Shown: positions 13,397 through 35,593 of the stretch, piece after piece
Position numbering within the stretch: position 1 is the first letter of the stretch
How the letters are laid out: each line of letters opens with the position of its first letter
From: Candidatus Woesearchaeota archaeon
Lineage (GTDB): Archaea > Nanobdellota > Nanobdellia > Woesearchaeales > UBA9642
Reading direction: 5' to 3'
NCBI GenBank assembly: GCA_003599145.1
Contig: QZIT01000001.1
Span: forward strand, 3,831-67,830
DNA length: 64,000 nt
Position numbers and translations under genes: made by a program
Notes under the pieces: model-generated
What the model was told of the DNA's origin: nothing
Seen by the model: only the letters and a program-made list of their open reading frames with translations
The model's database searches: none

Positions 13397-13508
13397 GCTA
13401 AAACAGCAAGTCTTTTTAAAGTTTGCTTTTCCTGCAACGCTCAGGTATACATCTATAGAAGTATAAAAACGTACAAAGATTTAAATATAAGTATTGCTTG
13501 AAATCATC

Positions 13509-13649
13509 GTGAACAAAAAAGTAACGCTCAGCATTGATGAAAAAACCTATGAGGAGTTTCAGAAATACTGCGAAAGAAACGCCATTCTGCTGTCAAAAAA
13601 AATAGAGCTGTACATGAAAGAGCTGTTGAAGCATGAACGAAGAAAATAA
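13509..13649 (+). CDS. Ribbon-helix-helix DNA-binding protein (46 aa, below the ORF-track cutoff)
   Basis: GTG start after a TATA box. MNKKVTLSIDEKTYEEFQKYCERNAILLSKKIELYMKELL has an alternating beta strand followed by two helices. Confidence 0.75.
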   Translation: MNKKVTLSIDEKTYEEFQKYCERNAILLSKKIELYMKELLKHERRK

Positions 13650-13944
13650 CGAAAAAATATCATTGGAAGCATCAGTAGAAGAAGAGCACAGGCATTACAA
13701 GAAAAAGCCAGAGAATTTCAAGGAAATAGCGCTTTCCTACTCGTTTCTTTTAATAGTGATAGCGTTTTTAGTTTTCAGTGTTCGCCTGAAAGAGCTAGGA
13801 TCATCGCTCTTGGCAAGAACAAACATTGTCGGTCATGCAGCATCTGGGAATGTGCTTCAAAACAGCTTTCCGCTAGCACTACTTGTAGTTCTTGGTTTGC
13901 TGATTATAGGCATACTGTATCTGCGCAGACAATTCAGAAAGTAG
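13633..13944 (+). CDS. Small two-TM membrane protein
   Basis: Two hydrophobic segments. Overlaps the end of the RHH gene. Confidence 0.65.
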   Translation: MNEENNEKISLEASVEEEHRHYKKKPENFKEIALSYSFLLIVIAFLVFSVRLKELGSSLLARTNIVGHAASGNVLQNSFPLALLVVLGLLIIGILYLRRQFRK

Positions 13945-13953
13945 CACCTAAAA

Positions 13954-14121
13954 ATACAAATGTCATACAAATCATGTCATTTTCTTAACAAAACGATATA
14001 TTTATAAAGCGCTGTTTTCATTGATAAAAGAAGAGATGCTGGTAACTCCCGTATAAAAGGGCTAAAAACAAGCAAAAAAAGAAAATACAACATACAAATA
14101 ACTTACTTAACGCATACAAAT
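13954..14121 (+). repeat. Direct repeats ATACAAAT (four copies plus ATACAAC)
   Basis: Copies at 13954, 13965, 14092 and 14114, partial copy at 14085, around the promoter of the RHH pair. Confidence 0.5.
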
Positions 14122-14122
14122 A

Positions 14123-14290
14123 ATGAACAAAAAAAACATACGTAAAAATACCGTAGCCGTAGCAGTCGTCAATGTGCGAATGCCCTACGGCGTTGTTCGC
14201 ATTCTTGACAAGCTCGTAGAACAGGGAATCTATAAATCTCGAAGCGAAGCCGTCAGGGAATTTGCAAGGCAATATGTCAACGAACAGTAG
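14123..14290 (+). CDS. Ribbon-helix-helix (CopG/ParD-like) protein (55 aa, below the ORF-track cutoff)
   Basis: VVNVRMPYGVVRILDKLVEQGIYKSRSEAVREFARQYV is a classic RHH pattern. Confidence 0.82.
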   Translation: MNKKNIRKNTVAVAVVNVRMPYGVVRILDKLVEQGIYKSRSEAVREFARQYVNEQ

Positions 14291-14558
14291 AAAGGAAGTC
14301 ATGGTAAGCATCAGAATGCCCTCTTCGCTAGTTGCACAGCTCAAAGAGCTTGCAGTAAAGAAGCATTTTCTTGACATGGGAGAGCAATTGCGATCGCTCG
14401 TAAGAGAAAAATGCATGCAGCATCTCGACCCCTATTCTGGGGAAATGAAGAAATTCAGAGAAGAACTCAAACAGGAATTACTGCATAAAACGTCTGAAAA
14501 AAATGTTCTCATAAAAGACTTGAAAAGAATTGTGGAGGAGCTCAGCAATGAAAAATAA
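14274..14558 (+). CDS. Ribbon-helix-helix protein with C-terminal coiled coil
   Basis: MVSIRMPSSLVAQLKELAVKKHFLDMGEQLRSLVRE. Alternative start at 14301. Confidence 0.75.
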   Translation: MSTNSRKEVMVSIRMPSSLVAQLKELAVKKHFLDMGEQLRSLVREKCMQHLDPYSGEMKKFREELKQELLHKTSEKNVLIKDLKRIVEELSNEK

Positions 14559-17547
14559 ATGGCTACTGCTAGTGTTGATGATCATTTCTATGAGTGCACC
14601 TGTTCACGCGCTAACACTGATATCTCCAGACGACAATTTCATAACAGGAAATGCTTCACTACAGCTTACGTTTCAACATCAATTCAACAGCACAAACTTT
14701 TCCTGCGACGTATTGATAGACAATCAATCTCAAGGAATGCCCTATAACCTCAGCGAGCAAATTTTTGCATTTGACACTGTTTTCACAGAAGGATTGCACA
14801 CGTGGAGCATTGCTTGCATTAACGATAATATAACCATAGAGAGTGAAACAAGAAGCATAACGCTCGATACCTCTTCCCCTAACATCAGCATCCTTTCTCC
14901 GCTAGCAACAACGTATGGCACAAACAACATCACCTTTCACCTCAACGTTACCGATGTATTTCCCGCAGTTGACTGCCAGATGCATCTCGCATCTTCATCG
15001 TATAACACTGATGAAAATATGCAATTACAAACCAACACGCTCTATAGCAGCACCAAAACACTGCCCAATGGCCAGTATGCCCTTACCTTGCTCTGCACAG
15101 ACCAGCTAGGAAACAGCAATCAACAAGGCGTTAATTTTACGGTGAACAAAATAGAGCCGCTTTTTGATGTTGTGTTTGAAAAAAACGTGTATACTATGGG
15201 AGAAGCCATTGCCTTTGACATACGTGCAAACAATGGAAGCAATGTATTCTTAACCATTACTGCACCAAATGGAAACAGCTATGTTTGGAACTACAACGGG
15301 CAAAATTATCCAAAACATGAAGTTTTGCCCTATAGCAAGCGCTACGGCTCATACAATGTTATCGGAAACATGCAATATCTTAATTATTCTTTATCAGTAA
15401 ACAAAAACATCAACGTGCAAAGCAACATGGATGTGGAGATTAAGGGAAAAACAACCATCAACCTTTCAGAAAAGTTAACGCTGGAGGGCATTCCTTCAGG
15501 AGGTTTTGGAACGCTCAATCTTTCCTGGAAGTTAAGCAATGGTTCAACGGTGAAGAGCCACATCTTGGAAAGAACCTATGCAACATCAGGAAAATACACA
15601 GAAACATTTATCGTTGTTGACCAGGAAGGCAATGAACTCAAGAAGGATGTTGAAGTAAGTGTCAAACAAGCCTATAGACTCTATGTCTATGTTATTGATG
15701 GAAGTTCAAAGCTTCCCATCAAAGACGCCTTGTTGGAAATTGATGACGATGAATATTTAACAAACAGCGACGGCCTCGTTTCGCTAGATTTGCTTGAAGA
15801 TTCCTACGATATGACCATAAGCAAAGAAGACTACAAACCATACAGCGATTCATTTTCATTTCATGAAAACAGAACCTTGAATATTTCGCTCAACCTTGTT
15901 GATAAAACACCTCCCTCGATAACGTTAATGACCACTCCTGATGAGATACTTACAGAACCAAAAGCACTTACTTTTTCGGCAAATGACGTTGGATTGATGC
16001 AGTGCTCGCTTTACTTGAAACGACCAGAAGAGAGCTGGTCTGTATTGACGCAGACTTTACCAAACATTCAAGCCAATAAAGTCTACCAATTCAATGTTGA
16101 GAACATTACCGCAGGAAGCTACCAATGGAAAGTAGAATGCAAAGACAGCAACAACAATGGAGCGTTCAGCGAAGAACGCTCATTTTCAGTCAACAGTGAA
16201 GAGCTACTGAACACCATTCAAGAAAATGAAGACGCCATAGCTGGATTTACTGCAGCGCTTGAAACATTCAACACCCTCGATAAAGATGAACGCGAAGCAT
16301 TTGAAACCCTAAACATAAAAGAGCACATTGAAGAAACGCAAAAGCAAATGGAGCGCATAAAGAGAGACATGAATAATCTTATCTTCAGAAACGACCTTAC
16401 CAATGAGGAAAAGGAGCAGGAAAGGAAGATACTTCTTGAAAAAATGCAGGAAATCCAGCAAAATACACCTATAAGCATAACCGTAAAGGACAGCAAAACA
16501 TTTGTCAAATACCCCACTGTTGAAGAAGTTGAACGACTGCTTTTGGCTGTTTTAGGAAATGACGCCAATAAAAAGCTGCTCAAGAAAAATCAAGCATTGC
16601 AACAAAGCCTTTCCACAGCAACAAAGGCAAAAATTGTAGAAATTAGCTACCCTTCAAAAACAGAAACAGTAACGCTCATAGAGAAGCAAATCGCTTTAGA
16701 AAGCACAGAGTCAGGATTCTTAGCAGAGTATATTCCGCTAGCCATTGCCCAAGCAAAGGAGATAACCATACTTAATGAAGATTATCAAATTTTAGGAGAC
16801 TCTCTAATTAGATTCAGCACAGGCAACGTTATAGCATACACTATTCCAAAAGCAATCAACCTCGAGCTCGCGCAGGAAACTACAACTATTTTTGTTACCA
16901 AAGAGCAAACAGGCTCTACTCCAACAGGGTTTTCCATTAAAACAGTTTCCAACTCTCCCTATAGTTTAGGCATTCTTATTGCGATAGGCGTTCTCTTAGG
17001 AGGCTTTGTTGCAGTAAAAAGACTGAAAAGAAAGGATGAACAGCCTTTGTCAAAAAAGCCAGGTGTGCAAGAAGCTGAACAATCACAGAATACCACCCAA
17101 CAAGGCACTGTGCAATCATTATGGACAACCGTGAGCAAGGTATTGCCTCAGAAAACAGAAAACCCTCAATTTTTGCAATTGATTACTCTTATGTACCAAC
17201 ACATAGGCACAGGGGACTACCAGCAGGCGCTTTCATTGTATCAGTTAATGAAAACAGAATATGCCAAGCTTCCGCATAAGCAACAGCACAAGCATTACGG
17301 AGAACTGGTACATATTTGCACCTCTATCGATGTTCTCTATGCCAGAAAACTTGCAGATGATGTTACGGTACATCTTGCAAATTTCAAGCGAAAAGAAGCG
17401 CTAGAATCCTTCAACGTCTTTGCAGGAATTTTTCAAAGGCTGTCTGAAACAGGAAAGAATGAGCTCTATGAGAAATATGCGTATCTTTCATCGCAAATTG
17501 AAACCATCAGAACATCCATCATGATGGAATTGCAGTCAAAAGCATAA
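14548..17547 (+). CDS. Large membrane-anchored surface protein (Ig-like/PKD/PEGA-like domains, coiled coil, TM, cytoplasmic helical domain)
   Basis: Signal peptide MKNKWLLLVLMII, repeated W.(I/V).C.D Ig-type motifs, many NxS/T sequons, TM LGILIAIGVLLGGFVAV followed by a basic stretch. Confidence 0.8.
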   Translation: MKNKWLLLVLMIISMSAPVHALTLISPDDNFITGNASLQLTFQHQFNSTNFSCDVLIDNQSQGMPYNLSEQIFAFDTVFTEGLHTWSIACINDNITIESETRSITLDTSSPNISILSPLATTYGTNNITFHLNVTDVFPAVDCQMHLASSSYNTDENMQLQTNTLYSSTKTLPNGQYALTLLCTDQLGNSNQQGVNFTVNKIEPLFDVVFEKNVYTMGEAIAFDIRANNGSNVFLTITAPNGNSYVWNYNGQNYPKHEVLPYSKRYGSYNVIGNMQYLNYSLSVNKNINVQSNMDVEIKGKTTINLSEKLTLEGIPSGGFGTLNLSWKLSNGSTVKSHILERTYATSGKYTETFIVVDQEGNELKKDVEVSVKQAYRLYVYVIDGSSKLPIKDALLEIDDDEYLTNSDGLVSLDLLEDSYDMTISKEDYKPYSDSFSFHENRTLNISLNLVDKTPPSITLMTTPDEILTEPKALTFSANDVGLMQCSLYLKRPEESWSVLTQTLPNIQANKVYQFNVENITAGSYQWKVECKDSNNNGAFSEERSFSVNSEELLNTIQENEDAIAGFTAALETFNTLDKDEREAFETLNIKEHIEETQKQMERIKRDMNNLIFRNDLTNEEKEQERKILLEKMQEIQQNTPISITVKDSKTFVKYPTVEEVERLLLAVLGNDANKKLLKKNQALQQSLSTATKAKIVEISYPSKTETVTLIEKQIALESTESGFLAEYIPLAIAQAKEITILNEDYQILGDSLIRFSTGNVIAYTIPKAINLELAQETTTIFVTKEQTGSTPTGFSIKTVSNSPYSLGILIAIGVLLGGFVAVKRLKRKDEQPLSKKPGVQEAEQSQNTTQQGTVQSLWTTVSKVLPQKTENPQFLQLITLMYQHIGTGDYQQALSLYQLMKTEYAKLPHKQQHKHYGELVHICTSIDVLYARKLADDVTVHLANFKRKEALESFNVFAGIFQRLSETGKNELYEKYAYLSSQIETIRTSIMMELQSKA

Positions 17548-17574
17548 ATCAAACGAGTGAACAGATTATAAACT

Positions 17575-20500
17575 ATGAAAAAAACTCAAAAAACAAGAGT
17601 ACATAGCGTTTTGGATAGTGTTACTGCTCTTCAAAAAAAAAGGAAGCATGTTTACTTTTTTCTTATTGCACTTTCAATCATCTTTTCTGTCGTAGGAATT
17701 TTGCTCATAAAAAACTATCTTGGCTATGCATCATTTGCAGGAGAAGGAGGCAATGTTTATGAGCTGGATATCTATTTTGAACAGGATGCAACGTATTGGG
17801 CAGGCCTTTACGGCGTTGCACTGCGCTTTGACGGATGGAATGTTCCCTGGTCAAAAGTAGTGTACGGCAACAGCATAGACTTGGGTGTTTTTTTGTTTGA
17901 CTGTATGCAAGTCAACTTAGACCATGAGCTTTACGCTTCGCTGGTTAATGCGTCAGAAATTGACTGGTCAACCATACAGGGAGCAAGCCCTGAAGATATC
18001 AATGCCTTTCTTAACCTAAGCGATACTGACGTATATTCTGCACTGAACATGTTTACCAGCGAAATCAATGTCTCCATAGGAAATACGTCATTAATCATCA
18101 ATGCAACATTCACGAATGTCTATAATCAGACCAATGCGACTGTTTATGATGTTGGATTGCTCAAAGACGGCAATGGAACGCTTGTTTTTGTATCTCATAT
18201 AACAGACAACGCGACGTTTTGTTATTATGGGGGTATCTGCAATTATCAAATGCTCTTGCCTATCAGAAACGGAACCAATGAAACCTATCATTTTTTTACA
18301 GACCCGTATGACCAATGCCTTCCGGGAGAAATACCTGTTCCCTTAGAATATACGTTTGTCAACGGAACTGTATCGAACACCGACGGAATGAATATGAGCG
18401 GGGTCTTGGTTGTTATAGGAAATTATGCAACCTACACCGACAGCACAGGATTCTACAATTTTACGCTTCCTATAGGGGATTACCATGTTTTTGCAGTTGC
18501 AGATGGATATAAAACATACCACAACGTTCTCAACCTTACCACTCCTAACGTTACCACAGTGCACAATATACTGTTAAGTATCCAGCTAACGGGAAAAAAC
18601 GACAACCCAGGAAAAAAATCAGAGGACACTCCCAAGGAAAAGCCACAACAGCCTCAAATAGAACAGCCCTCGGTCATCAGAGAGATAGGATTTATCATCT
18701 CTATTGCTGAAATCAACCGAAAAATAAAGCAGGGCAACTTTATTCAGGAATTCATTTCCTTTGTCAGCGTTGTAGAGTATCCCTTAGACCTCTATTTCAC
18801 CATCAGCGGCCCTGTAGCTGAAATAATACAGCTTGATGAAAAGCACTTCACCATCGAAAAGGCACTGAAAAAAACACTCACCATGACCATATTCGGCAAA
18901 GGAGAGCCTAGAGTGCTGACTGGATTTTTGAATATTACAGGAACGTTTCAGCATGAAATTCCCATCACTATTGAAATTATCGATAAAGACATGCTGCCGG
19001 TAGAGGCCTTGCTTATTGACGTTCAGCCATTGAAGAATAAAGTTCTTGAACAGGAGCAGTTCAGGTTCAAAACTAATTTGAAAAACCTATTAATCGATGA
19101 GCAGTACCCCGTAACGATTCATTATTCAATCCAGAATTTAAATGGCTCAACAACCTATTGGACTGCAGAGGAAAATATATACTTACTTACCTCTGCATCT
19201 ATCATCAAATCAGTTAAATTACCAAAAGAAATGAAGCCAGGAGAATACGTACTGAGAGTTACTGCTTATTACCTCGATTTATCAACAAGCGACAGTGCAG
19301 TGTTTATTGTAGAAAGGCCGTTCTATCAGTATAAAATATTTGGCATACCTTTATGGATATACGGATTATTTTTAGTTGTACTCATCGGACTTTGGATACT
19401 TTGGAAAAATTTGAAGAAAGCAATGGATCATGGGAAGAAATACAGAATGGTTCTTGATTACAGCGAAATACCGAAAGACGGCCCTAGAGGATTATACGTA
19501 GGGAACATTGCAGAAACAAAGCGAAAAACGTACTTTGACATGGATAATCTGAAAACCCACACCATCATTGCAGGCTCCACAGGCTCTGGAAAGTCATTTA
19601 CCGCACAGGTTATTGCTGAAGAAGCGCTTGACAAGAATGTTGCCGTCATCATCTTTGATCCGACAGCACAGTGGACAGGCATGCTTCGCAAATGCCAGGA
19701 TAGATCCATCATCAAAACCTATGGCCAATTTGATATGCAGCAGAAAGACATCAAGGCATTCAGCGGCAGCCTTAAAATGGTGACCAATGCCTATGAAGAA
19801 ATCAACATTGCAAAATATACCAAGCCAGGAGAAATTCAGATATTTGTCATGAACAATCTTGAGCCTGAAGACATCGAAATTTTTGTGAGCAATACCGTAA
19901 GGGAAATTTTCAAGGAAAAGCTTACGGAAAGCAAAGAGCTAAAATTGCTTTTGGTTTATGACGAAGTGCACCGGCTGCTGCCTAAATTTGGAGGAACAGG
20001 CATAGGATTTTTGCAGATAGAACGGGCTATTCGAGAGTTTAGAAAGTGGGGTGTCGGGTTGTTGCTTATTTCTCACGTGCTAAACGATTTTGTTGAGCAG
20101 ATACAGGCAAATATCAACACCCAAGTCCAGATGAAAACAAGAGATGAAAGCGATCTTGAAAGAATAAGGATGAAATATGGCCAGAACATTTTCAGGTCAA
20201 TGGTAAAAACAAAAGTAGGAACAGGACTGGTTGAAAATTCAGATTACAACAAAGGAGAGCCTTACTTTGTCGATTTTAGGCCTATCAAACACTCTTTAAC
20301 CAGATTATCAGAAGAGGAAATAAAGAAATACCATAATTACCAGTTAAAGGTTGACCAAATAAGCTATGAAATCGAGCAGCTTGAGGAGCTGAAGCACGAC
20401 GTATTTAACCTTAATTTGACTTTGAAATTGCTTACTAAAAAATTAAAAGAAGGAAATTTCTATGTCGTGGACATTTATCTCGATGAAATTTCTGCAGAAT

Positions 20501-20946
20501 TGGAAAAAGCGTGGCAGTCTTTGAGAAAGAAGCCAAAGAAACTGGAAATAAAGCTGATAGATAAAAAGGAAATTGAGAATGAAATAAAAAAAGCAAGGGC
20601 GGAAAGGGAAACGGCAACGGCTAAACTGGAAAAAAGCAAGCAGCCAAAAATAGAAGATGCGTTTGCAAAAGAAGTCTCTTTGGATAAGGCGCTCAATATG
20701 GACAACGGTGCAACGATTCTGAGCCTGCAGGAATTGCTTGATGTCTTAAAAGGCATAACTCCGTTGGTTTTCAAAAAGCATGTCAATGAAGAGAAGAACG
20801 ACCTTGCAAACTGGGTGAAAAGAAACCTGCAAAACGAAGAGCTTGCAAAAAAACTAGAACCTTGCAAAGCATCAGCTGACATGATTAAAGTTCTAGAGGA
20901 CTATAAAGCAACGGTTTCCTATTTTAAGGATGAGAAGAAAAAATGA
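17575..20946 (+). CDS. Membrane-spanning HerA/FtsK/VirB4-superfamily (DUF87-like) ATPase with large extracellular region and C-terminal DUF5752-like domain
   Basis: N-terminal TM, sequon-rich beta domains, second TM, HTIIAGSTGSGKS, IIFDPT, LLVYDEVHR, REFRKWGVGL, coiled coil, then HVNEEKNDLANWV. Confidence 0.85.
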   Translation: MKKTQKTRVHSVLDSVTALQKKRKHVYFFLIALSIIFSVVGILLIKNYLGYASFAGEGGNVYELDIYFEQDATYWAGLYGVALRFDGWNVPWSKVVYGNSIDLGVFLFDCMQVNLDHELYASLVNASEIDWSTIQGASPEDINAFLNLSDTDVYSALNMFTSEINVSIGNTSLIINATFTNVYNQTNATVYDVGLLKDGNGTLVFVSHITDNATFCYYGGICNYQMLLPIRNGTNETYHFFTDPYDQCLPGEIPVPLEYTFVNGTVSNTDGMNMSGVLVVIGNYATYTDSTGFYNFTLPIGDYHVFAVADGYKTYHNVLNLTTPNVTTVHNILLSIQLTGKNDNPGKKSEDTPKEKPQQPQIEQPSVIREIGFIISIAEINRKIKQGNFIQEFISFVSVVEYPLDLYFTISGPVAEIIQLDEKHFTIEKALKKTLTMTIFGKGEPRVLTGFLNITGTFQHEIPITIEIIDKDMLPVEALLIDVQPLKNKVLEQEQFRFKTNLKNLLIDEQYPVTIHYSIQNLNGSTTYWTAEENIYLLTSASIIKSVKLPKEMKPGEYVLRVTAYYLDLSTSDSAVFIVERPFYQYKIFGIPLWIYGLFLVVLIGLWILWKNLKKAMDHGKKYRMVLDYSEIPKDGPRGLYVGNIAETKRKTYFDMDNLKTHTIIAGSTGSGKSFTAQVIAEEALDKNVAVIIFDPTAQWTGMLRKCQDRSIIKTYGQFDMQQKDIKAFSGSLKMVTNAYEEINIAKYTKPGEIQIFVMNNLEPEDIEIFVSNTVREIFKEKLTESKELKLLLVYDEVHRLLPKFGGTGIGFLQIERAIREFRKWGVGLLLISHVLNDFVEQIQANINTQVQMKTRDESDLERIRMKYGQNIFRSMVKTKVGTGLVENSDYNKGEPYFVDFRPIKHSLTRLSEEEIKKYHNYQLKVDQISYEIEQLEELKHDVFNLNLTLKLLTKKLKEGNFYVVDIYLDEISAELEKAWQSLRKKPKKLEIKLIDKKEIENEIKKARAERETATAKLEKSKQPKIEDAFAKEVSLDKALNMDNGATILSLQELLDVLKGITPLVFKKHVNEEKNDLANWVKRNLQNEELAKKLEPCKASADMIKVLEDYKATVSYFKDEKKK

Positions 20947-21299
20947 AGAAGCAGAAAAAAAGCAGTGGAAAAAGCAAGGAAAAAATCTCTAAAGCAAAAA
21001 GGAAAAAAGAAAAAAATATAAGCGAAAAACAAATACAAGATTGTCAGGAACAATTCATAACTTTAAAAGAAAAAACGACGCTGTTAAGAAAATCAGGAAA
21101 AAATACCTTTACTGCAGATATGCTCTTGAAAGCATTAAAAGCTAAAGTAAGGCTCCTCAAAGCGTATGACACAGAAAAAGAGTTTGCAGAAGTCAAAAAG
21201 CTTTTAAACAAAGCAGCATCTGAAGTCATGGCTATAGAAAAAGAAAAAAATACAGATATTGCAAAAGAGGTGAGGGCTGTACGCAATGAGCCTTTTTAA
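20943..21299 (+). CDS. Lysine-rich helical hypothetical protein
   Basis: 118-aa ORF overlapping both neighbours. Confidence 0.65.
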   Translation: MKKQKKSSGKSKEKISKAKRKKEKNISEKQIQDCQEQFITLKEKTTLLRKSGKNTFTADMLLKALKAKVRLLKAYDTEKEFAEVKKLLNKAASEVMAIEKEKNTDIAKEVRAVRNEPF

Positions 21300-22614: not shown

Positions 22615-22631
22615 GTGCAGATAACCGCCCA

Positions 22632-24419: not shown

Positions 24420-24604
24420 AAACGTATAAGTGCGAAAAAGTATATATACTTTTCTCTTAAAAACAGTATAACCTTAAAAAAGTATAATATTATATTATAA
24501 ATAATATAATTCTAAACTACAGATTTAAGTTCTCAAAAACAGAAACCTTTATAAATCCATTACCCATATAAAGATATAACATTATATTAAAAAAGATATA
24601 ACAA

Positions 24605-25102
24605 ATGATCATTAACGCCATTGATAAAGAGATACTGGCATTCTTAAGTAAACACACGGTTATAGGCTGTTCTATTAACCAGATTGCCCTTGCATTGCAT
24701 AAAGCATATCCCCATATCAACGCAAAGGTTAACGTTTTACTGCAAGAACGCATCTTGAAAAAAAACATTATTGGCAAGTCGCACGTTTGTTTTTTGAATT
24801 TGCGCAACCCCATAACCAGATATGCCTTAGCCATTATTGAAACAGAAAAGGCGCGCGTTTTTCTTAGCAAGCATAGCGAGATTAAAAAAACAATCAAGCA
24901 GGTAATAAAAGAGCATACGCTGCAAACAATTTTTGCATTGCCTGAGAGTGTTTACATGGTTACTGATGAAACTTTTTTTCATAAAAAGATAAAAAACGTA
25001 AGCAAATCTGAATTAGTCCAAATAACTATGAAACATAAAGATATAACCGTACTCTATAAACCTGAAAATTATTATAGTATTTTGAAAAAAACACAAACAT
25101 GA
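24605..25102 (+). CDS. wHTH protein (possibly HTH plus degenerate nucleotidyltransferase)
   Basis: SINQIALALHKAYPHINAKVNVLLQERIL...IGKSHVC. Its stop overlaps the start of the giant gene. Confidence 0.65.
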   Translation: MIINAIDKEILAFLSKHTVIGCSINQIALALHKAYPHINAKVNVLLQERILKKNIIGKSHVCFLNLRNPITRYALAIIETEKARVFLSKHSEIKKTIKQVIKEHTLQTIFALPESVYMVTDETFFHKKIKNVSKSELVQITMKHKDITVLYKPENYYSILKKTQT

Positions 25103-28100: not shown

Positions 28101-31100
28101 CTCGATGAGCAATGGCAACTTCCCCATTCAAATAGGAAAGAGAGGCGATGGAAATTACTTTATCGGTTCTGTTGATGATATCAGAATATACAATAGAAGC
28201 CTTACACCAAATCAAGTAAAACAGATGTACAATGAAACTGCACTTGGAAAAACAGACAACAGTACCATAACTGACTTAGAAACAATTACAGGAGAAAATT
28301 GGACTTGTTTCGTAACACCAAACGATGGATATGAAGACGGCTTAACAAAAAATACATCTGTTGTTATCACGGCAACCAACACTGCTCCATCCGTGAGCAC
28401 TCCCTATATACTTCCTATAACTCCAACTGCTTCAACAACAACACTCAACTGTTCAGTTATCCCTACAGATGCTGAACAAACAAGCTTGACTTTAAACTTT
28501 TCATGGTACAACGGAACAACAGTGTACAATTCAACACAGTACACCGTAGCAAACAATTCAAATTTTACCATGAATGTTTCTGTAGTTTTAAGAGCCCTGG
28601 AAGTTTGGAACTGCACTGTTTTTGCAAATGATGGAACAGATTCAGGAAATAGTAATAGCACCACCGTAACCGTTGTCAACGCAGAACCAACGCAAGATAC
28701 TCCAACAATTCTGCCTGCAAGCCCTGACGCACTTACGAACTTTACCTGCTATAATCAATCGACAACAGACGCAGATGGACATACGGTAACCAACATCTAT
28801 AATTGGCTTGTAAACAATGTTTCCATTACCGTATTGCATCTTCCTTTTGATACTAATGTAACGTCAACAGCAACGGGTGCAGTAAAGGACTATTCAGGAT
28901 ATAACAATAATGCAACGCTAGAAGGCGGAACAGAAACTCCAACGTACACCACCAACGGAAAAATTGGAGGCGCATATAACTTCAGTAGCGACCATATTAA
29001 CGTAACAGACCATGCAAGCATAGATACCACAACGGCATTTACTGTAGAGCTTTGGGCGTATCCTTCAACAACTGCAGCCGGAAGCTATGACATCATAGGA
29101 AAATATGCATGGGTAGCAGGCCAAGGGCTCTATCAAGTAAGGCAAAGTGGAACAAGCTTAGTTGTTTATGTAATTAACGGCGCCAGCACGAATACTGTAA
29201 CTGCAACAAGCTTTTTTACTGCAAACACTTGGCATCATATAGCAATATCCTTTAACAGTTCAAATGTGACTATTTACAAGAATGGAACCTGGGCAGCAAA
29301 TACAGACCCCACATTAGCGTTTTTACAAACAAATACACCTTTAATCATAGGAGCAAGAGCAGATACTGCAAGCGCAAATTATTTTTCTGGTGTATTGGAC
29401 AACATAAGAATATATAATAGAAGCCTTACTGGAAACCAAATAGCCGCATTGTATGCCGCAACGTCTGCAGGAAAAACAGACAACAGTACGATAACTGACT
29501 TAGAAACAAACAGCAGTGAAAACTGGACCTGCTTGGTAACGCCAAACGATGGAGCTGTTGATGGAATCATGAAAAACACCAGCGTACTTCTGCAAGAAGC
29601 TGCTGCTGACGAATGCGCTCCAAGTGGAGCATGGAATGTTACTTCTCTTATCAGCTGTTCTGACACAACAATTAGTGTAACCAGCATCAACATATCAACA
29701 GCAGGATACTTGAATCTCACCAGAGTCAATTTAACAACAGGAATAACCGAAGTTTTTGGAAACTTTACATCAAGAGACAGCCCCACAACCATATGGCAAA
29801 ATGGCAACCTCACCATTTATGGAATATATGGCTTAGATAACACAACACTGCGCATGAATGGAACAACTGACGGCATGTATGGCATCGTAGTCAATGACAG
29901 TGCATCCATGACTATCAACAACAGTGCGAATATTACTCGAGGTTCAACGAGCACGTTTAATTATTTCTTCAAAGTTAATACGGGCAGTACGTTTGTCATG
30001 AAAAATTCTATTTTAGAATATGCAGGTTGGTCTTCCACCATAAATCAAAGAGGATTAGAGATAAATACCACAGTTACGCAATTTCATAACAACACGATTT
30101 TAAATAATTTTTATGGGGCGGCTTTTTATGCGAATAATAGCATGATACGAGATAACAATATCACGAGAAACGTTATTGGGATGTACTTGGACTATTCCCA
30201 TAACAATTCTATAGTAAGCAATAATCTTTCAGGAAACAGCAATAGTGGAGCGACTCTTTATCTTGCCTATGGTCTTTTTTTAAACAGTGCAAACGCGAAT
30301 ACCATTACAAACAATGACCTATCAAATATCAGAACAAGTGTAGGCGCATTGCCAAGTCCTGCATATGGAATTTATATGATTAACAGCGAGAACAATACTG
30401 TTTCACAGGGAACATTCAACAACATTACTGGTCTTCAAGATGCTTCCAGCGATGTAGCTTCCTATGCAATATATCTTGCAACTTCAAATAACAATAACTT
30501 TTCAGCAAACAAAATATGGCAGGGCCATATCGGATACTATCTCGATGGATCAAACAGCACCGTAATTGACGGAACTTCAATAGCTAACACAACCTTTGAA
30601 GCTATTTATTTAAGGAATACTAAGAACAGCATAATAAGAAATATAGTGATGGAAAATGCATCTTACGCAGGAGATAGTACAACCACTCCTGGCGCTGCAG
30701 GAGTTTACCTCCAAGGCAGCTCTTCAAACAACATAACAAACATAACCATCAGAAAAAACATTTTGGGAATGCGGTTTGGAAGTTACGGAACTAGCTATTC
30801 AAATACAAACAGAGTGATGAATTCAACAATTTTTAACAACACCAAGGGGATTTATGCAGAATTTGGAAATGCAAATTATTTTATTGACTCTGTGGTTAAC
30901 TTTTCAGCTCAAGATGATATCTACTTTAAAAATGGAACATCTACAGCTCCCGCAAACATCACCTTTATCAATGTAACACACAGAAAGGGAAATATAACAT
31001 TCAACACAACAAACTGCCAGAATGCCGCAACACCATTCTGCCAGTTAAACGTGTACTGGTATTTGAATGTTCAAGTCAATGAAAGCGCAACAGGAATCAA

Positions 31101-34100
31101 TCAAGCATTGGACCAGGCAACGGTAACGGCAACCAATGTCAGCGGGATACAAACCTTCAGCACATTGACTAATTCTACAGGATGGATAACGCGGCAAAAT
31201 GTTTCAGAATATTGGCAGAATGCAACGTTAGCCAGCTATCAGACTAATTATACGATTAACGCAACAAAAACGTTTTACAAGAAAAACAGCACTGCATTGA
31301 ATATCACTTCTTCAACCATCATGTACTTAAGCTTGCAAAGAGATACGCCTTATATAACGCAACTGAACATAACTCCGACAAGAGCATACAACAACGACAC
31401 CTTAAATTGCAGTGTTACCGCTGTTCATGACACGCTAACAAACTTGAACATCTCCATCACTTGGTATAATCTTTCAGGAGGTAGCTATGTTTATTATAAT
31501 AATACAAATATCAGTACAACCAACAATACGCAAGTAAGCTGGTTGCTGGATAGCAGCGTAACCTGGAAAGGAGAAACGTGGAACTGCACGGTAATTGCAA
31601 ATGATGGAACGTGGAATTCTACAAGGAACTCAACAACACAGTATATCTATAATCTTGAGCCGCAACATACAACACCAATCATTCTTCCTGCAAGCGTCAA
31701 TAATGACACCAACTTTACTTGCATAAATCAGTCAACCATCGATCTTGACAGTTCAAGTGTGGTAAACATCTACAATTGGCTGGTTAACGGAACACCCATT
31801 ATGGTGTTAAACATGCCTTTTGAAACAAACACTTCAAGTTCTGCAAGCGGAGCAATAAAAGATTATTCTGGTTACGACAATAATGGAACATTATCCAGCA
31901 GTACTGGACCAACATGGATAGCAGGAAAAATTGGAGGAGCATATGACTTTGATGGAGCTGATGATTCTATGAGCATTCCTAACTCCATATCATTAAACTC
32001 TACAAAAAACATCACCATAGCGTTCTGGATAAAGCCAAAAACATTCACAGAGCCAAACCCATATATTCTCTATAAAGGCGCAAGCGACCTGAACGCAGTT
32101 GAGTATCTTGTAAGATTTTCCAGCTCAAAAATGGTTTTCATATTTTATAATCAGAGTGGATTTTCAACCGTCCAAGTAGCGTCTACAAGCACCTTGGCAA
32201 CAAACACCTTTTATTTTGTAGCAGCGACGTACAATGGCTCAAATTTGAGCATCTATATTAATGGAACACTGCAAAACAGCACTCTGAGTAATGTCACGAT
32301 AAGGACAAACGCAAACACGATAGACGTAGGATATATATCAACAGTCTGCGCAGATACTTGTTACGCAAACATGACTCTCGACGAGCTTAAAATATTCAAC
32401 AGAAGTTTAACCGCCAATCAAATATGGCAAATGTACTTAGAGGGAAACAACAGCATAGGAAATAGTACGATAACTGATTTAGAAACAAATACGGGTGATA
32501 ACTGGACGTGTGAGGTAATTCCCAATGACCAGGAAGATGATGGCACAACAAAAGACGTTTCTGTGATTATTGCTGCATCAAACATAGCCCCATCTGTATC
32601 TGCGATAACCATCAATTCAACTGATGGAACAAATGTGACAACACAAGACCTTCATTGCAATGCAACCATAACAGACCCTGAAGGCACAGCGTTGAATGTG
32701 TCTGTACAATGGTATAAAAATGGCGTTGTAAATTATTCTCAAGATTACAATAACAGTTATAGCAATGGAACTATGTTTAACGCAACCCTTGGTTCAGGAA
32801 ACACCACCAAAGGAGATATTTGGTTTTGCAGTTTTAGGGCATCTGATGGAAGCCTTACCAGCGATTGGATAAACTCTTCTAATCTAACGATACTCAACAG
32901 CAATCCTATCATGATAACCAGTAGAATAAATCCTTCTCCGACAGCGCTTGACAGCGATACGCTTTCAGGATACTGCAATGCAACTGATGCAGACAATGAC
33001 AGCGTTGTTTATTACTGGCAGTGGTGGAAAAACAGCGTGCTTGATTCAAGCGGGAATGGAAACTTTTCAACATCGCTTTGTTATCAGGAAACAGCAACCA
33101 CCAGTACTGCCTGCGGAGGGTTATCTACTGGAACCTATCTATGCTCAGGCGATTGGGATGGCACTCAAACTTGTGCGTTAGTCTATGATGGAAGTTGGGC
33201 AACATACGGAACAGCAACGTCAAACGATCCTGGTGCAACACTCTACATTAATTACACAAAGCCAACAAATGCTATTTCAACAAGTTTATGGGAGATAAAA
33301 GACAATAGCGCGCAAACAAATCTTAGCATGAGTGCTAGCTGCTGGAGTCAGAGCATACTGCAGCTATCTGCAGGCGTTGGAAGCAGCATTCACCAAGAAT
33401 GGAGCTGCTATACAGGCTCTGGATGGACTGCGATTCGTGCACTCAGTGGAGCAGGAACCTATAGGGCCTATGAAGAAGCCATGTGGTGGAACATATCATT
33501 TTATCATGCACAAGGAATAGAAGCATTGGTATCCAATGTTTCCGACAGTTTAACAAGTGCAGGAGATTCATGGATTTTTTCATGCTTGGCAGATGATGCA
33601 ACAGCAAATAGTTCATGGATGAACAGCACGGCAACAACCATTAATGAGAGCACAACCTACGACTTTGAAGTCAACAGCACCAATATCACGTTCAGCACCA
33701 ATAATCCTGTAGAAAATGAAGTTATGACGCTTTTCGCAACCGTCTATAATCTGGGAAATACGAATGCAACCAATGTCACGATTCAATTTTTTGATGGCGA
33801 TCAGGAAAACGGAACTCAAGTAAACGGCAATATTACCAGAAACATTTCAGCTGGGAGCTATGTTACCGTAAATGTTTCCTGGACAGTAACTCAAGGAACG
33901 CATAATTTCTATGCGCTTGCAGACCCTCCTTATGGAACTGGCAGTTTTTCTGAAACAGCTGAAACCAACAACATTGCCAACAAAACACTCACCGTATCAA
34001 TCTGGCAAGTCTATTATGGCCTTATGAACACCACTGTATTTCTAGCAACTTCACAAAATATATCGCTGCAGAAATGGTGGGCTGCAAATGTTACTGGAAA

Positions 34101-34575
34101 CATTTACGTTTCAGATACAGACACAACCAACGGAGTTTCATTCACTACCCTACAGGCTATTTACAGAAACACATCAAACATGACCAACGCCAACACCCAG
34201 AACGACTTTGAAAATATTGACGCTAATTTGGAAACAACTAACTATAGCGATAGCGTCAACGCAACCTTCACGGTAAGCGGAGCTCCTGCAGCAACAAAAA
34301 CTATCAACAGCTATAACAAAAACATTGCAAATATCTCTGTTGTTAACAGCACAAATACCTCTTCATTTATCACAGGCATCTTATGGGATACTTCTGACTC
34401 AAGCAATGACTATTATGACACTGGCGAGAAGGAAGATCTCATATTTATCACTGAAATAAACATGTCCAAACAAGGGCAGTACGGAACCTATGATTACGAA
34501 ATCAAAATACCTGCAAATTTAAGGTCATATAAAGGCAGTGATGCAAGCGTAGTGTTTTATTACGAGATAAACTGA
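25099..34575 (+). CDS. Giant (3158 aa) secreted modular adhesin-like protein: Cys-rich repeat, three LamG, beta-helix (NosD/PbH1), disulfide Ig repeats, CARDB, conserved C-terminal domain
   Basis: Signal peptide; VHHFSAY; CGNGVVEGTEECD; LamG motifs (TISAWI, WHM/WHH, DDIRIYNRSLT); Asn-rich beta-helix; CARDB (ATVYNLG...ETNNIA); very dense NxS/T sequons; no C-terminal TM. Confidence 0.88.
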   Translation: MNALKRVLLGFWLILLVLPLTSGLTLNTHNLILGETLEINITDQTNNRITISNGEDIYVYQGSPEIIKFVPKKTGDYKIAMSDALTNAAIEQEEFTVSSAPLQPEVILFDKPAYTSGDKVIISFNSDQEELKVTISSSTDFYQFLGTVHESIEFVPNKADVYTVNAYAQDQVIGTATFYVATKTKHTTETIIDYSALSDKDLERQLRDFFPAVTFKGVLKNEQGAFPTFDLTIASDDAKAQATLKGVKDINQLTQIDIIKEANADKSQYNIVGDIVAVNAIALESATIQLSKEGAVTGVLECDDFIFGTNKCKNWQVSSTPFIDYGTYVIFTVHHFSAYTIWYNFTTNLTNRAYKGADITNPPHANPSSWFNASTALTSAEYTAINISDDNRANVSYFTNGTGWNIHMFEFKINQSASLINSIMLYWEGYGSKNNETDANNNISMFLYNFSQNNWTANLNTSCLAGACNSTTSEKNISYNLTTSISDFINSSGYLRFIITEYDNVTAASEGGAVCGNGVVEGTEECDYTSTDCASPSAQKCSTGATCPDPPACSGRGLYLQCQTDCTYYCGSCIAICPFIYSWDGSQYFYDNVILQQIETKEKETLQIKPFNFPLLVNDSYIVQIREYKPETSYFDTFYVIINDSYENETTTTEIKPASETYNIAALLYEDGEYLKIEYGEIVPIVFRPIPPLKQGYKREVFFAAKGYYEFYNDLDKQYYDLRNGICYLPSQKEKIQVVSTTCGPPPEEVRTEITVHNTLYTDQAKVFVAYNNSPPTHSTPVITPTDPLTEENFTCYNQSTSDIDGNTVSNIYAWTVNGAPLMLLYLPLDSNVTNTTTGAVKDYSTLNNNGTLGPNTETPLWNSSGIIRGDYYFDGGDYINISDQSYFSPNETRNMTISAWINIPSGASASTSGGCGGTGRYFLTKAGASNWEWGFENDNNNLLCFCLWRASDGATYGCGSSSRTMNDATWHMYTATINYGSYMTLYVDGVNTTTVSSFTNSMSNGNFPIQIGKRGDGNYFIGSVDDIRIYNRSLTPNQVKQMYNETALGKTDNSTITDLETITGENWTCFVTPNDGYEDGLTKNTSVVITATNTAPSVSTPYILPITPTASTTTLNCSVIPTDAEQTSLTLNFSWYNGTTVYNSTQYTVANNSNFTMNVSVVLRALEVWNCTVFANDGTDSGNSNSTTVTVVNAEPTQDTPTILPASPDALTNFTCYNQSTTDADGHTVTNIYNWLVNNVSITVLHLPFDTNVTSTATGAVKDYSGYNNNATLEGGTETPTYTTNGKIGGAYNFSSDHINVTDHASIDTTTAFTVELWAYPSTTAAGSYDIIGKYAWVAGQGLYQVRQSGTSLVVYVINGASTNTVTATSFFTANTWHHIAISFNSSNVTIYKNGTWAANTDPTLAFLQTNTPLIIGARADTASANYFSGVLDNIRIYNRSLTGNQIAALYAATSAGKTDNSTITDLETNSSENWTCLVTPNDGAVDGIMKNTSVLLQEAAADECAPSGAWNVTSLISCSDTTISVTSINISTAGYLNLTRVNLTTGITEVFGNFTSRDSPTTIWQNGNLTIYGIYGLDNTTLRMNGTTDGMYGIVVNDSASMTINNSANITRGSTSTFNYFFKVNTGSTFVMKNSILEYAGWSSTINQRGLEINTTVTQFHNNTILNNFYGAAFYANNSMIRDNNITRNVIGMYLDYSHNNSIVSNNLSGNSNSGATLYLAYGLFLNSANANTITNNDLSNIRTSVGALPSPAYGIYMINSENNTVSQGTFNNITGLQDASSDVASYAIYLATSNNNNFSANKIWQGHIGYYLDGSNSTVIDGTSIANTTFEAIYLRNTKNSIIRNIVMENASYAGDSTTTPGAAGVYLQGSSSNNITNITIRKNILGMRFGSYGTSYSNTNRVMNSTIFNNTKGIYAEFGNANYFIDSVVNFSAQDDIYFKNGTSTAPANITFINVTHRKGNITFNTTNCQNAATPFCQLNVYWYLNVQVNESATGINQALDQATVTATNVSGIQTFSTLTNSTGWITRQNVSEYWQNATLASYQTNYTINATKTFYKKNSTALNITSSTIMYLSLQRDTPYITQLNITPTRAYNNDTLNCSVTAVHDTLTNLNISITWYNLSGGSYVYYNNTNISTTNNTQVSWLLDSSVTWKGETWNCTVIANDGTWNSTRNSTTQYIYNLEPQHTTPIILPASVNNDTNFTCINQSTIDLDSSSVVNIYNWLVNGTPIMVLNMPFETNTSSSASGAIKDYSGYDNNGTLSSSTGPTWIAGKIGGAYDFDGADDSMSIPNSISLNSTKNITIAFWIKPKTFTEPNPYILYKGASDLNAVEYLVRFSSSKMVFIFYNQSGFSTVQVASTSTLATNTFYFVAATYNGSNLSIYINGTLQNSTLSNVTIRTNANTIDVGYISTVCADTCYANMTLDELKIFNRSLTANQIWQMYLEGNNSIGNSTITDLETNTGDNWTCEVIPNDQEDDGTTKDVSVIIAASNIAPSVSAITINSTDGTNVTTQDLHCNATITDPEGTALNVSVQWYKNGVVNYSQDYNNSYSNGTMFNATLGSGNTTKGDIWFCSFRASDGSLTSDWINSSNLTILNSNPIMITSRINPSPTALDSDTLSGYCNATDADNDSVVYYWQWWKNSVLDSSGNGNFSTSLCYQETATTSTACGGLSTGTYLCSGDWDGTQTCALVYDGSWATYGTATSNDPGATLYINYTKPTNAISTSLWEIKDNSAQTNLSMSASCWSQSILQLSAGVGSSIHQEWSCYTGSGWTAIRALSGAGTYRAYEEAMWWNISFYHAQGIEALVSNVSDSLTSAGDSWIFSCLADDATANSSWMNSTATTINESTTYDFEVNSTNITFSTNNPVENEVMTLFATVYNLGNTNATNVTIQFFDGDQENGTQVNGNITRNISAGSYVTVNVSWTVTQGTHNFYALADPPYGTGSFSETAETNNIANKTLTVSIWQVYYGLMNTTVFLATSQNISLQKWWAANVTGNIYVSDTDTTNGVSFTTLQAIYRNTSNMTNANTQNDFENIDANLETTNYSDSVNATFTVSGAPAATKTINSYNKNIANISVVNSTNTSSFITGILWDTSDSSNDYYDTGEKEDLIFITEINMSKQGQYGTYDYEIKIPANLRSYKGSDASVVFYYEIN

Positions 34576-34639
34576 TGCAGAAGAAAGCAAAAAAATAAGA
34601 AGATTTAAAAAAAGTAAACACGGCAAAAAGAGGTAAAAC

Positions 34640-35593
34640 ATGAATCCCTTGGCATTAGGATTTTTCATCTCTGCAATTTTTCTTATCTATATAGGAAGCA
34701 GAATTTTAAAATCGTGGGAAAAAAATTACAGGGAAGCCTTGTTTTACTGGGGTTTCGGGCTGATGGTCTGGGGAGCTGCTATGGCCATGCAGAGCCTGCT
34801 CACTGCAGAAATCATTCCCTCTACCAAAACACTCCTGTTTATCAGATTTCATCTTGAAGGAATAGCCTTTGTGTTCTTTTTGCTGTATGGAACTTTAATG
34901 CTTATTTTAAAGAAAAAACAAGCAACCGCCATTACGTTAACGTACTACCTGTTTTTTTTCGTTTCGAGCATTTTTCTCGTTGGAACCCTTAAGAATATTA
35001 CTGCTGTTTCTGTATGGCACAACGTTCTTTTCATAACACCTCCTTCCTTGCTTTTTGGATTTTACTACTTTTATTATTATAAACTGCTCAAAACAACAAA
35101 GATTTTCTCATTATACAACCTTTGGATTTTCTTTGCAGTGTTAGCCTATATGTATACCTTCACTTTCGCATTTGGATTGTTAGAAAGCAAGTTATTTTCA
35201 GTCTGGAGCATTTTGTACAATGCAGTCGTCCTAGGCATTTGCTTTTCTTATTTGAGCCTAACTAGCCAAGCAAACATCGCTTGGAATCAGATAACCAAGC
35301 CTTTAGACCATATTGTAGATCATGGCGTGCTTGAGCTCTTTGAGAAATACTTTCAGGAGAAGGGAAAAGATATTATTCAGGAGCTCCTCGCACAGACAGG
35401 CATTGCTGAACTCAAAACAGCATCAAAGCAGCAGAGAACTGATTTCATAGAGAAAGCATTGCAAAACTATTTTTCAGATGTCATTTCTGTGCAAAAACAA
35501 GACATCATCAGAACACAACTCATAGGCTTATTGGGCATGAGTGTAGAGGATTCCTACTGGAAGTCCTATAATTATAGTGCTGTAAGAATGTGA
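34640..35593 (+). CDS. Polytopic (~7 TM) membrane protein with soluble C-terminal domain
   Basis: About seven hydrophobic segments followed by a ~100-aa helical tail. GAGGT SD. Confidence 0.7.
   Translation: MNPLALGFFISAIFLIYIGSRILKSWEKNYREALFYWGFGLMVWGAAMAMQSLLTAEIIPSTKTLLFIRFHLEGIAFVFFLLYGTLMLILKKKQATAITLTYYLFFFVSSIFLVGTLKNITAVSVWHNVLFITPPSLLFGFYYFYYYKLLKTTKIFSLYNLWIFFAVLAYMYTFTFAFGLLESKLFSVWSILYNAVVLGICFSYLSLTSQANIAWNQITKPLDHIVDHGVLELFEKYFQEKGKDIIQELLAQTGIAELKTASKQQRTDFIEKALQNYFSDVISVQKQDIIRTQLIGLLGMSVEDSYWKSYNYSAVRM

Follow-up and report, generated by a model that had tools for sequence, protein, structure and literature searches.

What does a membrane ATPase do when it is encoded in one run of genes with a type I surface protein, a coiled-coil protein, and a giant secreted glycoprotein? 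This question is raised by a locus of Candidatus Woesearchaeota archaeon (GenBank assembly GCA_003599145.1), which lies in a stretch of 64,000 nucleotides of contig QZIT01000001.1 (contig positions 3831-67830). We call this whole stretch the window, and positions are counted from its first letter. The genome measures 1.31 Mb in 6 contigs and is ~97.5% complete. A preliminary description had proposed an undescribed attachment system of DPANN archaea at this locus. All open reading frames (ORFs) that it listed were found where it had placed them, and, apart from the points taken up below, their topologies and domains were borne out. The gene cluster is real and is conserved in Woesearchaeota-type archaea beyond what chance would produce. 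Judging from sequence relationships, the SPEARE-type surface system of DPANN archaea is present here in a short form whose parts are split among several genes.

A conserved gene cassette around a membrane ATPase

All genes of the cassette lie on the forward strand. They encode rhh2 (14123-14290, 55 residues), the first of a conserved pair of ribbon-helix-helix (RHH) proteins; rhh3 (14262-14558), an RHH-like protein of 98 residues with a helical C-terminal extension; a type I membrane glycoprotein of 1005 residues that we call the anchor (14530-17547); and a SPEARE-type membrane ATPase of 1123 residues (17575-20946). Downstream follow the genes for a basic protein of 118 residues in a small-adaptor slot (basic118; 20943-21299), a cytoplasmic coiled-coil protein of 442 residues (cc442; 21286-22614), a putative winged helix-turn-helix (wHTH) protein of 165 residues (24605-25102), and the giant, a secreted glycoprotein of 3158 residues (25099-34575). 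The core order is thus RHH, RHH, type I surface protein, transmembrane (TM)/ectodomain/TM/ATPase protein, small adaptor, coiled coil, (wHTH), giant secreted glycoprotein. As had been noted, this co-oriented run is broken by a gene for a UbiA-family protein on the minus strand (22632-24419). Neighboring genes overlap by 4-29 nucleotides or are separated by at most 64, except for two larger gaps of 178 nucleotides upstream of rhh2 and 185 upstream of the wHTH gene. Specifically, rhh3 overlaps both rhh2 and the anchor gene by 29 nucleotides each, and the wHTH gene overlaps the start of the giant gene by 4. Overlaps of 4-29 nucleotides suggest translational coupling, which would support the unity of the cassette.

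For comparison, 48 loci were fetched and scored with hidden Markov models (HMMs) built from the family. The main comparison comprised 37 loci from 37 other genomes, in which the ATPase is a stand-alone protein of ~950-1600 residues; these relatives are kin from one order or class, so the counts are not independent. The anchor gene lay directly upstream of the ATPase gene in all 33 loci with at least 2 kb of upstream sequence, including L056, where a stop cuts the ATPase ORF and the anchor, missed by the automatic rule, was counted by inspection. The rhh2-rhh3 pair was found upstream of the ATPase gene in all 28 loci whose upstream sequence spans at least 3.3 kb. On the other side, a cc442 homolog was encoded downstream in 32 of 35 loci (the misses being L043, L054, and L061), a small DUF5752-like protein occupied the basic118 slot in 28 of 36, and a large ORF of the giant family, recognized by the giantN or the giantC HMM, was detected in 22 of the 29 loci with at least 5 kb downstream. 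A wHTH homolog was present in the matching slot in 12 of 37 loci, ten from the window's own family plus L035 (genome G023) and L058. The co-occurrence of the RHH pair, anchor, coiled coil, and giant around homologs of the ATPase, which had been put forward as a check of the proposed system, therefore holds across many families. No counterpart of rhh1, of a small ORF with two TM segments, of the UbiA gene, or of the polytopic protein tm317 was found in the first 20 related loci. The UbiA gene is an insertion outside the cassette, and rhh1, UbiA, and the supposed ~7-TM protein (tm317), earlier counted with the system, do not recur in related loci.

Near-full-length homologs of the ATPase (41-58% identity) were found in 17 of 18 other genomes of the window's own family, G011 having weak matches only, and in 4 of 22 genomes of other families in a first sample. 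The closest homologs carry source names such as "Candidatus Woesearchaeota archaeon" and "Nanoarchaeota archaeon". At E <= 1e-30, the ATPase core was detected in 86 of 301 sampled genomes of the order (85 of 300 without G289, which is flagged as unpublished) and in 67 of the 223 high-quality ones. In a phylum-wide sample it was detected at E <= 1e-40 in 76 of 401 genomes, 11 of them from other orders of the class.

The ATPase has two TM helices, TM1 at residues 27-45 and TM2 at 591-609, which enclose a β-sandwich ectodomain of ~545 residues (46-590) holding 18 of the 19 N-glycosylation sequons. Pfam models of the DUF87/HerA central domain (7.1e-13), HerA_C (8.8e-9), and CarboxypepD_reg (1.9e-9) match the protein, the ectodomain showing CarboxypepD_reg/Ig-like folds only. 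The C-terminal half contains a HerA/VirB4 fold (~620-912), a helical and coiled-coil region (913-1021), and a DUF5752-like module (1034-1110). An AF2 model built on 112 homologs (mean pLDDT 86.7) predicts an N-terminal TM helix, about five β-sandwich domains (75-580) with a disordered linker (339-370), a second TM helix (593-619), an α/β ATPase domain (639-901) ~20 residues past the membrane, long helices (913-1021), and a small helical module (1051-1122). Walker A (G667-S674), the Walker B residues D796 and E797, and likewise R817, R820, R823, and Q852 are invariant in the 112 aligned homologs. The TM helices, sequons, and Pfam matches confirm the earlier view of a protein that joins an ectodomain to a cytoplasmic P-loop ATPase.

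The core (residues 620-912, encoded at 19432-20310) was aligned to HerA, VirB4, and FtsK structures with VIA-align. It matched Sulfolobus HerA (4d2i) with Z 24.6 and a root-mean-square deviation (rmsd) of 2.8 over 251 residues, HerA-NurA (9x1m) with Z 24.0, an anti-phage HerA (8xaw) with Z 23.4, DndH-C (7es4) with Z 23.2, and VirB4 of T. pseudethanolicus (4ag6) with Z 22.8 (rmsd 2.7, 235 residues). Scores for FtsK (Z 16.6-17.2), EssC/EccC (Z 14.8-16.4), and TcpA (Z 16) were lower. Because the fold scores Z 22-25 for HerA and VirB4 versus 14.8-17.2 for FtsK and EssC, the model places the ATPase in the HerA/VirB4 branch of the FtsK-HerA superfamily, as the preliminary description had it; HerA and VirB4 are inseparable by the tools used. 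FtsK/SpoIIIE and EssC/EccC of type VII secretion systems resemble the window's protein in layout, with TM helices at the N-terminus and, next to the membrane, a ring ATPase belonging to this superfamily. However, the FtsK_SpoIIIE model reached 18.2 bits against a cut-off of 24, only a single ATPase domain is present, and Z is lower; no WXG-type or gamma-domain features were seen. No curated family claims the ATPase: the best-matching NCBIfam model, CedD, gives 41.7 bits where its cut-off requires 600. Its best PDB sequence match is the anti-phage HerA 8xau (phmmer, 1.8e-7), PADLOC gave mad8 (1e-17) and HerA (1e-15), and a weak ResIII signal (2.6e-5) is present as well. The core is single copy in this genome.

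The ATPase gene was found interrupted in three relatives, by one in-frame TAG each in L056 (G185:C36) and L023 (G012:C54) and by division into two adjacent ORFs in L044 (G018:C8), which could reflect recent inactivation or sequencing error. In the split cassettes L064 (G181:C1) and L065 (G102:C1), two tandem ATPase paralogs, one of ~800 residues with a short ectodomain and then one of ~1200 residues, lie between the anchor and coiled-coil genes, an arrangement that hints at mixed or stacked rings.

The DUF5752-like module at the C-terminus of the ATPase (~75 residues; 20674-20904) was detected with a custom HMM (1e-30), the Pfam DUF5752 model itself matching weakly (9.8e-4). Modules of this kind (~70 residues, with a motif around "HVN..KNDFanW") occur in 7 ORFs of the genome, on unrelated proteins. 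Besides the ATPase, the carriers are a FlaC-like archaellum protein, a 611-residue coiled-coil protein, a 113-residue ORF, a polytopic membrane protein with a long coiled-coil ectodomain (by eye, an ABC-2-type permease), and two small ORFs between ORFs that by eye resemble enzymes of glycogen/starch metabolism. The sites include 5018-6397 (minus strand) and 45215-45556 (plus strand) in the window and C1:376469-377175, C1:494836-496833, and C2:265371-267230 elsewhere. To judge from its sequence contexts, the module looks like a promiscuous cytoplasmic adaptor.

The giant carries a signal peptide and 174 sequons and shows no credible second TM segment, in agreement with the secreted adhesin without membrane anchor that had been proposed. 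It has a conserved N-terminal domain (~1-350), three laminin-G (LamG) domains of the Laminin_G_3 type (875-997, 1297-1449, and 2285-2442), a right-handed β-helix (1724-1965), and a conserved C-terminal domain (2839-3158) inside which a CARDB domain (2855-2961) lies. Five complete giants were compared, namely those of the window, L043, L051, L057, and L065. All have in common a ~320-residue C-terminal domain (33-42% identity, E 1e-42 to 1e-81) that ends in a shared motif, as well as a ~300-residue N-terminal domain. Their middles differ, with LamG, β-helix, and CARDB in the window and runs of Ig-like repeats resembling the anchor domains elsewhere. Constant ends and a swappable middle would fit an adhesin whose docking base is constant and whose binding surface varies.

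The anchor was likewise found to be what had been described, a type I membrane protein with an Ig/PKD-type ectodomain and a helical cytoplasmic tail. It has a signal peptide, a coiled-coil stretch in the ectodomain, a TM helix at 811-829, and a tail of 176 residues that is conserved in the alignment. PKD_4 matches at 7.4e-8, several Ig-like families match below threshold, and 18 of the 19 sequons fall in the predicted ectodomain. Three RHH regulators had been proposed, of which two stand: rhh2 is matched by Pfam RHH_1 (6.9e-7, 29.5 bits against a cut-off of 20.5) and, far under the cut-offs, by NCBIfam CdrS (5.7e-6) and NikR models, while rhh3, for which RHH_1 is sub-threshold (0.014), is homologous to rhh2 in a custom HMM (4.8e-8). 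The 51-residue rhh1 (13494-13649, plus strand) has a sub-threshold DUF6364 match only (6.2e-5; 23.8 bits against 27.3), is not conserved, and is a doubtful member. As for the putative wHTH protein, the ORF is present, but the label has no database match better than the E of 0.064 for HVO_A0114, the best in Pfam.

Lysine and arginine make up 28% of basic118, which is linked by BLASTP to the slot-equivalent proteins of L026, L031, L035, and L045. The custom HMM detected no DUF5752-like module in it, although the slot holds one in relatives. The cc442 family shares a conserved N-terminal region of 230 residues that starts with "M..FKKK" and has no TM segment (16 homologs aligned); it comprises 892 representative clusters at E <= 1e-3 and 339 at E <= 1e-30. 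The cc442 model is all-helical (pLDDT 67). No known family matched cc442, Foldseek returned no match at E <= 0.001, and a wide VIA-align search gave generic coiled coils only (Z <= 9). Its Atlas neighbors are hypothetical Nanobdellota proteins, and no informative extra domain was seen in 14 longer family members scanned. A complex prediction for ATPase residues 610-1030 with cc442 residues 1-235, run without controls, scored 0.00 against a mark of 0.32, a value that weighs neither way on binding. An identity of cc442 as an ESCRT-III/PspA protein was considered and is unsupported, PspA_IM30 touching 1 of 16 family members (5.6e-4).

Fused and split forms of the SPEARE module

In the parts of Hamm et al. 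(2019; PMC6642349) covered here, SPEARE proteins of Nanohaloarchaeota are described as reaching up to 8,553 residues, with versions of 655-717 residues as well. They are mostly extracytoplasmic, with a TM segment near the C-terminus and at least one laminin-G domain each, and their conserved intracellular portion was interpreted as a type III restriction enzyme. A SPEARE protein was detected by proteomics, and SPEARE-like sequences were noted in Woesearchaeota, Aenigmarchaeota, Micrarchaeota, and Altiarchaeales. In the parts covered of a later study (Reva et al., Front Microbiol 2023; PMC10266531), which speaks of "giant membrane-anchored extracellular proteins", the intracellular part was re-annotated as an ATPase resembling VirB4/TraG with a coiled coil after it, a second ATPase gene was reported downstream, and a secretion "straw" was proposed. 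The fused SPEARE form has been proposed to mediate host contact (PMC6642349; PMC10266531).

The window's ATPase carries the same module. Its residues 461-977 align with residues 2782-3305 of a 3306-residue protein of Ca. Nanosalina sp. VS9-1 at 37% identity (BLASTP, E 4e-107, 534 columns). A length-restricted search returned 239 proteins of 1,967-5,000 residues with the module at 40-56% identity, named from Woesearchaeota, Pacearchaeota, Aenigmatarchaeota, Micrarchaeota, Nanohaloarchaea, and Hadarchaeales. Many of these carry Laminin_G_3, CARDB, NPCBM_assoc, or Beta_helix; the first two and Beta_helix are common to the fused ectodomains and the window's free giant. The likeness extends to the order of parts, from membrane-proximal β-sandwich through TM helix and HerA/VirB4-type ATPase to coiled coil. 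As in SPEARE proteins, a TM helix (TM2, 591-609) directly precedes the ATPase, with the preceding part predicted outside by sequons and the AF2 model, and a coiled coil follows it (model helices 913-1021; the alignment extends to residue 977). The adhesin domains (LamG, CARDB, β-helix), the distribution in DPANN archaea, and the weak ResIII-helicase signal, of the kind behind the original "restriction enzyme" label, are further points in common.

The differences lie in how the parts are divided. A very long LamG-bearing polypeptide is encoded by the locus, but not in the 1123-residue ATPase protein: the LamG adhesin is a separate, anchorless product of 3158 residues, and the ATPase has two TM helices and lacks LamG. 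A second ATPase gene of the same family immediately downstream, as reported in PMC10266531, is absent here; tandem ATPases occur in L064-L069, L072, and L073. Three architectures can be distinguished. Architecture A is the split cassette, as in the window. In architecture B, a giant::ATPase fusion is followed by a cc442-like gene in 3 of 4 loci (L040, L041, and L070, but not L071). In architecture C, a giant::ATPase fusion is followed by a second ATPase of ~700 residues, with a coiled-coil-like ORF in 6 of 6 loci (L066-L069, L072, and L073); this arrangement matches the one described in the covered parts of PMC10266531. The coiled-coil partner is common to all three architectures. An HMM of the anchor tail found no match in the large proteins downstream of the type-C fusions.

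Given that the TM-ATPase-coiled-coil module is the SPEARE module, calling the system undescribed was too strong: as far as the covered parts of PMC6642349 and PMC10266531 go, both the motor family and its association with giant adhesins are already published. What is new with respect to the same sources is the short, split form together with its set of partners. No description of the fixed set of RHH pair, type I protein, DUF5752-type adaptor, and coiled coil was found in the literature covered, which from Hamm et al. (2019) takes in passages of the article but not its listing of Woesearchaeota relatives (Table S3, Fig. S17), and no mention of the cc442-family partner was found in the covered SPEARE literature. 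SPEARE-type giants are the main candidates for attachment of DPANN archaea to other cells and for exchange with them, yet at 3,000 to 9,000 residues and more they are nearly intractable. The window offers the same motor in 1123 residues, with the adhesin, type I partner, coiled coil, and two small regulators as separate genes of workable size, and thus a set of parts that can be tested by biochemistry, structure prediction, and localization. The conserved coiled-coil partner is shared by fused and split forms.

In addition, the ATPase module was found at the end of open frames of 8,055, 8,189, 9,175, 9,416, 9,862, 11,836, 11,928, and 15,809 residues. Frames of 15,809, 11,928, 11,836, and 12,283 residues lie in related genomes at G059:C41:61714-62805, G059:C93, G048:C4, and G506:C3. 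The 15,809-residue frame has one in-frame TGA, that of 12,283 residues has two in-frame stops, and only the 3' parts were fetched. If real, the frames of 11,836-15,809 residues would rank among the largest archaeal proteins.

Possible functions of the cassette

We favor, at a probability of roughly 45%, a reading by analogy in which the cassette encodes a split surface machine of SPEARE type for polymer translocation at a contact site; it is favored because proteins related to the motor thread DNA or take part in secretion. The ATPase would form a hexameric ring at the membrane, in line with every solved structural relative compared. Its ectodomain and the type I partner would make up a base on the cell surface, where the anchorless giant may dock via its conserved termini and, with its variable LamG/β-helix middle, bind glycans on another cell. 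On the cytoplasmic face, cc442 and the DUF5752-type proteins might act as a scaffold, and the RHH pair may autoregulate the operon. ATP hydrolysis would power mechanical work at the contact site, most likely by driving a polymer, be it protein or nucleic acid, through the ring. In favor of polymer translocation are the fixed gene order, the two-TM topology, the invariant active site, the fold, and the shared SPEARE module, along with the shared ectodomain domains, the coiled coil beside the fusions, and the constant termini and variable middle of the giants.

Several observations weigh against it. The cassette is known here from genes and models only, and interactions among its parts are inferred. 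It contains no conserved polytopic channel, so a conduit would need the 12 TM helices of the presumed hexamer. The giant has an ordinary Sec-type signal peptide, and its export needs no dedicated ATPase. The HMM of the giants' conserved C-terminal domain found no match in any ATPase-fused protein, leaving docking without Rosetta-stone support; the N-terminal HMM gave partial, generic Ig-like matches to these proteins only. With the ATPase in only 86 of 301 genomes of the order and 76 of 401 in the phylum-wide sample, the system counts as accessory. Finally, HerA-type ATPases serve in DNA repair and anti-phage defense too. A more far-reaching proposal is a distinct DPANN-specific envelope machine, neither type IV secretion system (T4SS) nor Ced. 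A HerA/VirB4-type hexamer with its own extracellular stalk, type I partner, coiled-coil scaffold, and docked giant would then act as a conduit, dependent on contact, through which DNA or protein passes between the symbiont and a second cell, with the SPEARE giants as the fused form of this machine; we regard this as unlikely.

The ATPase might instead work solely in the assembly or turnover of the adhesin: it would insert, extract, or put tension on the type I protein and the docked giant, with nothing moved between cells. VirB4 is thought to act on pilin, and the window's core is as near to VirB4 in fold (Z 22.8) as to HerA (Z 24.6); the type I gene directly precedes the ATPase gene (33 of 33 loci), the type I tail is conserved, and the cassette has no channel protein. 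Against this, the ectodomain of the fused forms is held covalently on the ATPase, so the general function cannot be to insert or extract a separate subunit, and no pilin-like small protein is part of the cassette; we judge assembly or turnover a somewhat unlikely account, though one to be taken seriously. Less probable still is that the genes are syntenic without functional coupling, surface-protein genes and an unrelated ATPase being inherited together. All relatives come from one order or class, and shared ancestry alone keeps some gene order. However, the order holds across many families at only 41-58% ATPase identity, the flanks vary while the core persists, and the genes overlap. Moreover, the pairing of ATPase and coiled coil persists in three architectures, and adhesin-type ectodomains fused to the same ATPase in other lineages link the two functions, which makes mere synteny highly improbable.

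Two further explanations turn on the relatives of the motor. A surface sensor coupled to a HerA motor could detect a virus or foreign cell and trigger a cytoplasmic response, in defense or in self/non-self discrimination. HerA of HerA-NurA and anti-phage HerA are indeed the best fold and sequence matches of the core (8xau 1.8e-7; mad8 1e-17 and HerA 1e-15; Z 22-23 for the anti-phage relatives), and a variable giant middle would fit an arms race. Known HerA defense systems are cytoplasmic, though, and the window's ATPase is membrane-embedded. NCBIfam HerA models reach 21-33 bits against cut-offs of 800-970, and since only ~20 residues separate TM2 and the ATPase, there is no room for the N-terminal barrel domain of HerA. 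Pfam and PADLOC scans showed no NurA or other nuclease, SIR2, or DUF4297 partner at the locus, and PADLOC no defense effector among the other 7 cassette and flanking proteins, cc442 giving a weak coiled-coil match to JetC (1.2e-5); we therefore hold a defense role to be improbable. A true T4SS or Ced/Ted DNA-transfer member, diverged past easy recognition, would explain the superfamily fold and membrane position shared with VirB4 and VirD4/TrwB/TcpA, and the weak matches to CedD (6.1e-11), TraD, TraC, and TrwB-type models. Small RHH proteins accompany conjugative coupling proteins, which also speaks for such an origin, while large glycosylated ectodomains are, to our knowledge, not among the features of T4SS ATPases. 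Reva et al., in the parts covered, label the module VirB4/TraG-like and propose a T4SS role (PMC10266531). Yet the VirB4 N-terminal domain (PF03135) has no match in the ATPase or in the whole 97.5%-complete genome, a control genome being positive, and VirB6/TrbL (PF04610) has none in this genome; the sole polytopic neighbor (34640-35593) is not conserved. TrwB_AAD_bind scores 18.4 bits against a cut-off of 20.5. No small hydrophobic, pilin-like, or VirB3-like ORF recurs in the cassette maps, in which no dedicated VirB2/VirB3 search was made. Ced of Crenarchaeota has an archaeal membrane-associated ATPase of the same superfamily, and CedD (NF053655) is the best NCBIfam match, but this match covers 58 residues around the P-loop and reaches 41.7 of the 600 bits required; the genome's best CedD-like gene lies elsewhere and is also below the cut-off, at 78.1 bits. 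The locus holds its chromosomal position next to adk in several genera, the window lacks tRNA genes, and none of the ORFs scanned has an integrase match. All told, membership of T4SS or Ced is very doubtful. A correspondence to these characterized systems, which the preliminary description had named as grounds for rejecting its proposal, thus did not appear in the features tested (VirB4 N-domain, VirB6/TrbL, and the CedD cut-off).

Genomic context and neighboring genes

Upstream of the cassette, adk (the adenylate kinase gene) and a 150-residue ORF were found in several genera, which indicates that the locus is chromosomal rather than mobile. A mobile-element origin was considered and is ruled out by the even GC content across the window (0.35-0.43), the lack of tRNA genes in the window (tRNA scan), and the recurrent chromosomal neighbors; no integrase-family match was found among the window ORFs scanned. 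Other archaeal genes in the window encode GatD/GatE, Cdc48, and TruD.

Two ORFs that flank the cassette are of doubtful or no membership. The 103-residue ORF with two TM segments (13633-13944, plus strand), which the preliminary description had not mentioned, has hydrophobic segments at residues 32-50 and 79-97 and is a doubtful member. Past the giant, tm317 (34640-35593, plus strand, 317 residues) is not a conserved member and has no family match in Pfam or NCBIfam scans; it is polytopic, as had been stated, but a hydrophobicity scale gives 6 hydrophobic segments instead of the ~7 TM helices suggested.

Lipid-related genes surround the cassette. The inserted UbiA-family prenyltransferase (595 residues; Pfam UbiA 6.8e-29) has an extra N-terminal TM region of ~270 residues, and a polyprenyl synthetase is encoded at 10035-11054. 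Downstream, an LPG_synthase_TM protein is encoded at 35651-36691, a CDP-alcohol phosphatidyltransferase at 37740-38324 (minus strand), and a phosphatidylserine decarboxylase at 38343-38975 (minus strand).

An archaellum cluster occupies positions 2-8532. Its FlaI-like T2SSE ATPase is truncated by the edge of the window, and its other members are a KaiC-like FlaH, three archaellin-family ORFs, and a FlaC-like protein. An apparatus for motility, or one resembling a type IV pilus, is therefore encoded in this genome apart from the cassette. Toward the other end of the window, a second, soluble DUF87/HerA-like ATPase of 441 residues with a Zot-like match (58477-59802, minus strand) is unrelated to the cassette ATPase core at E 1e-3. 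A further surface protein with a PKD domain is encoded at 61861-63999 (plus strand) and runs off the window end, with 713 residues seen.

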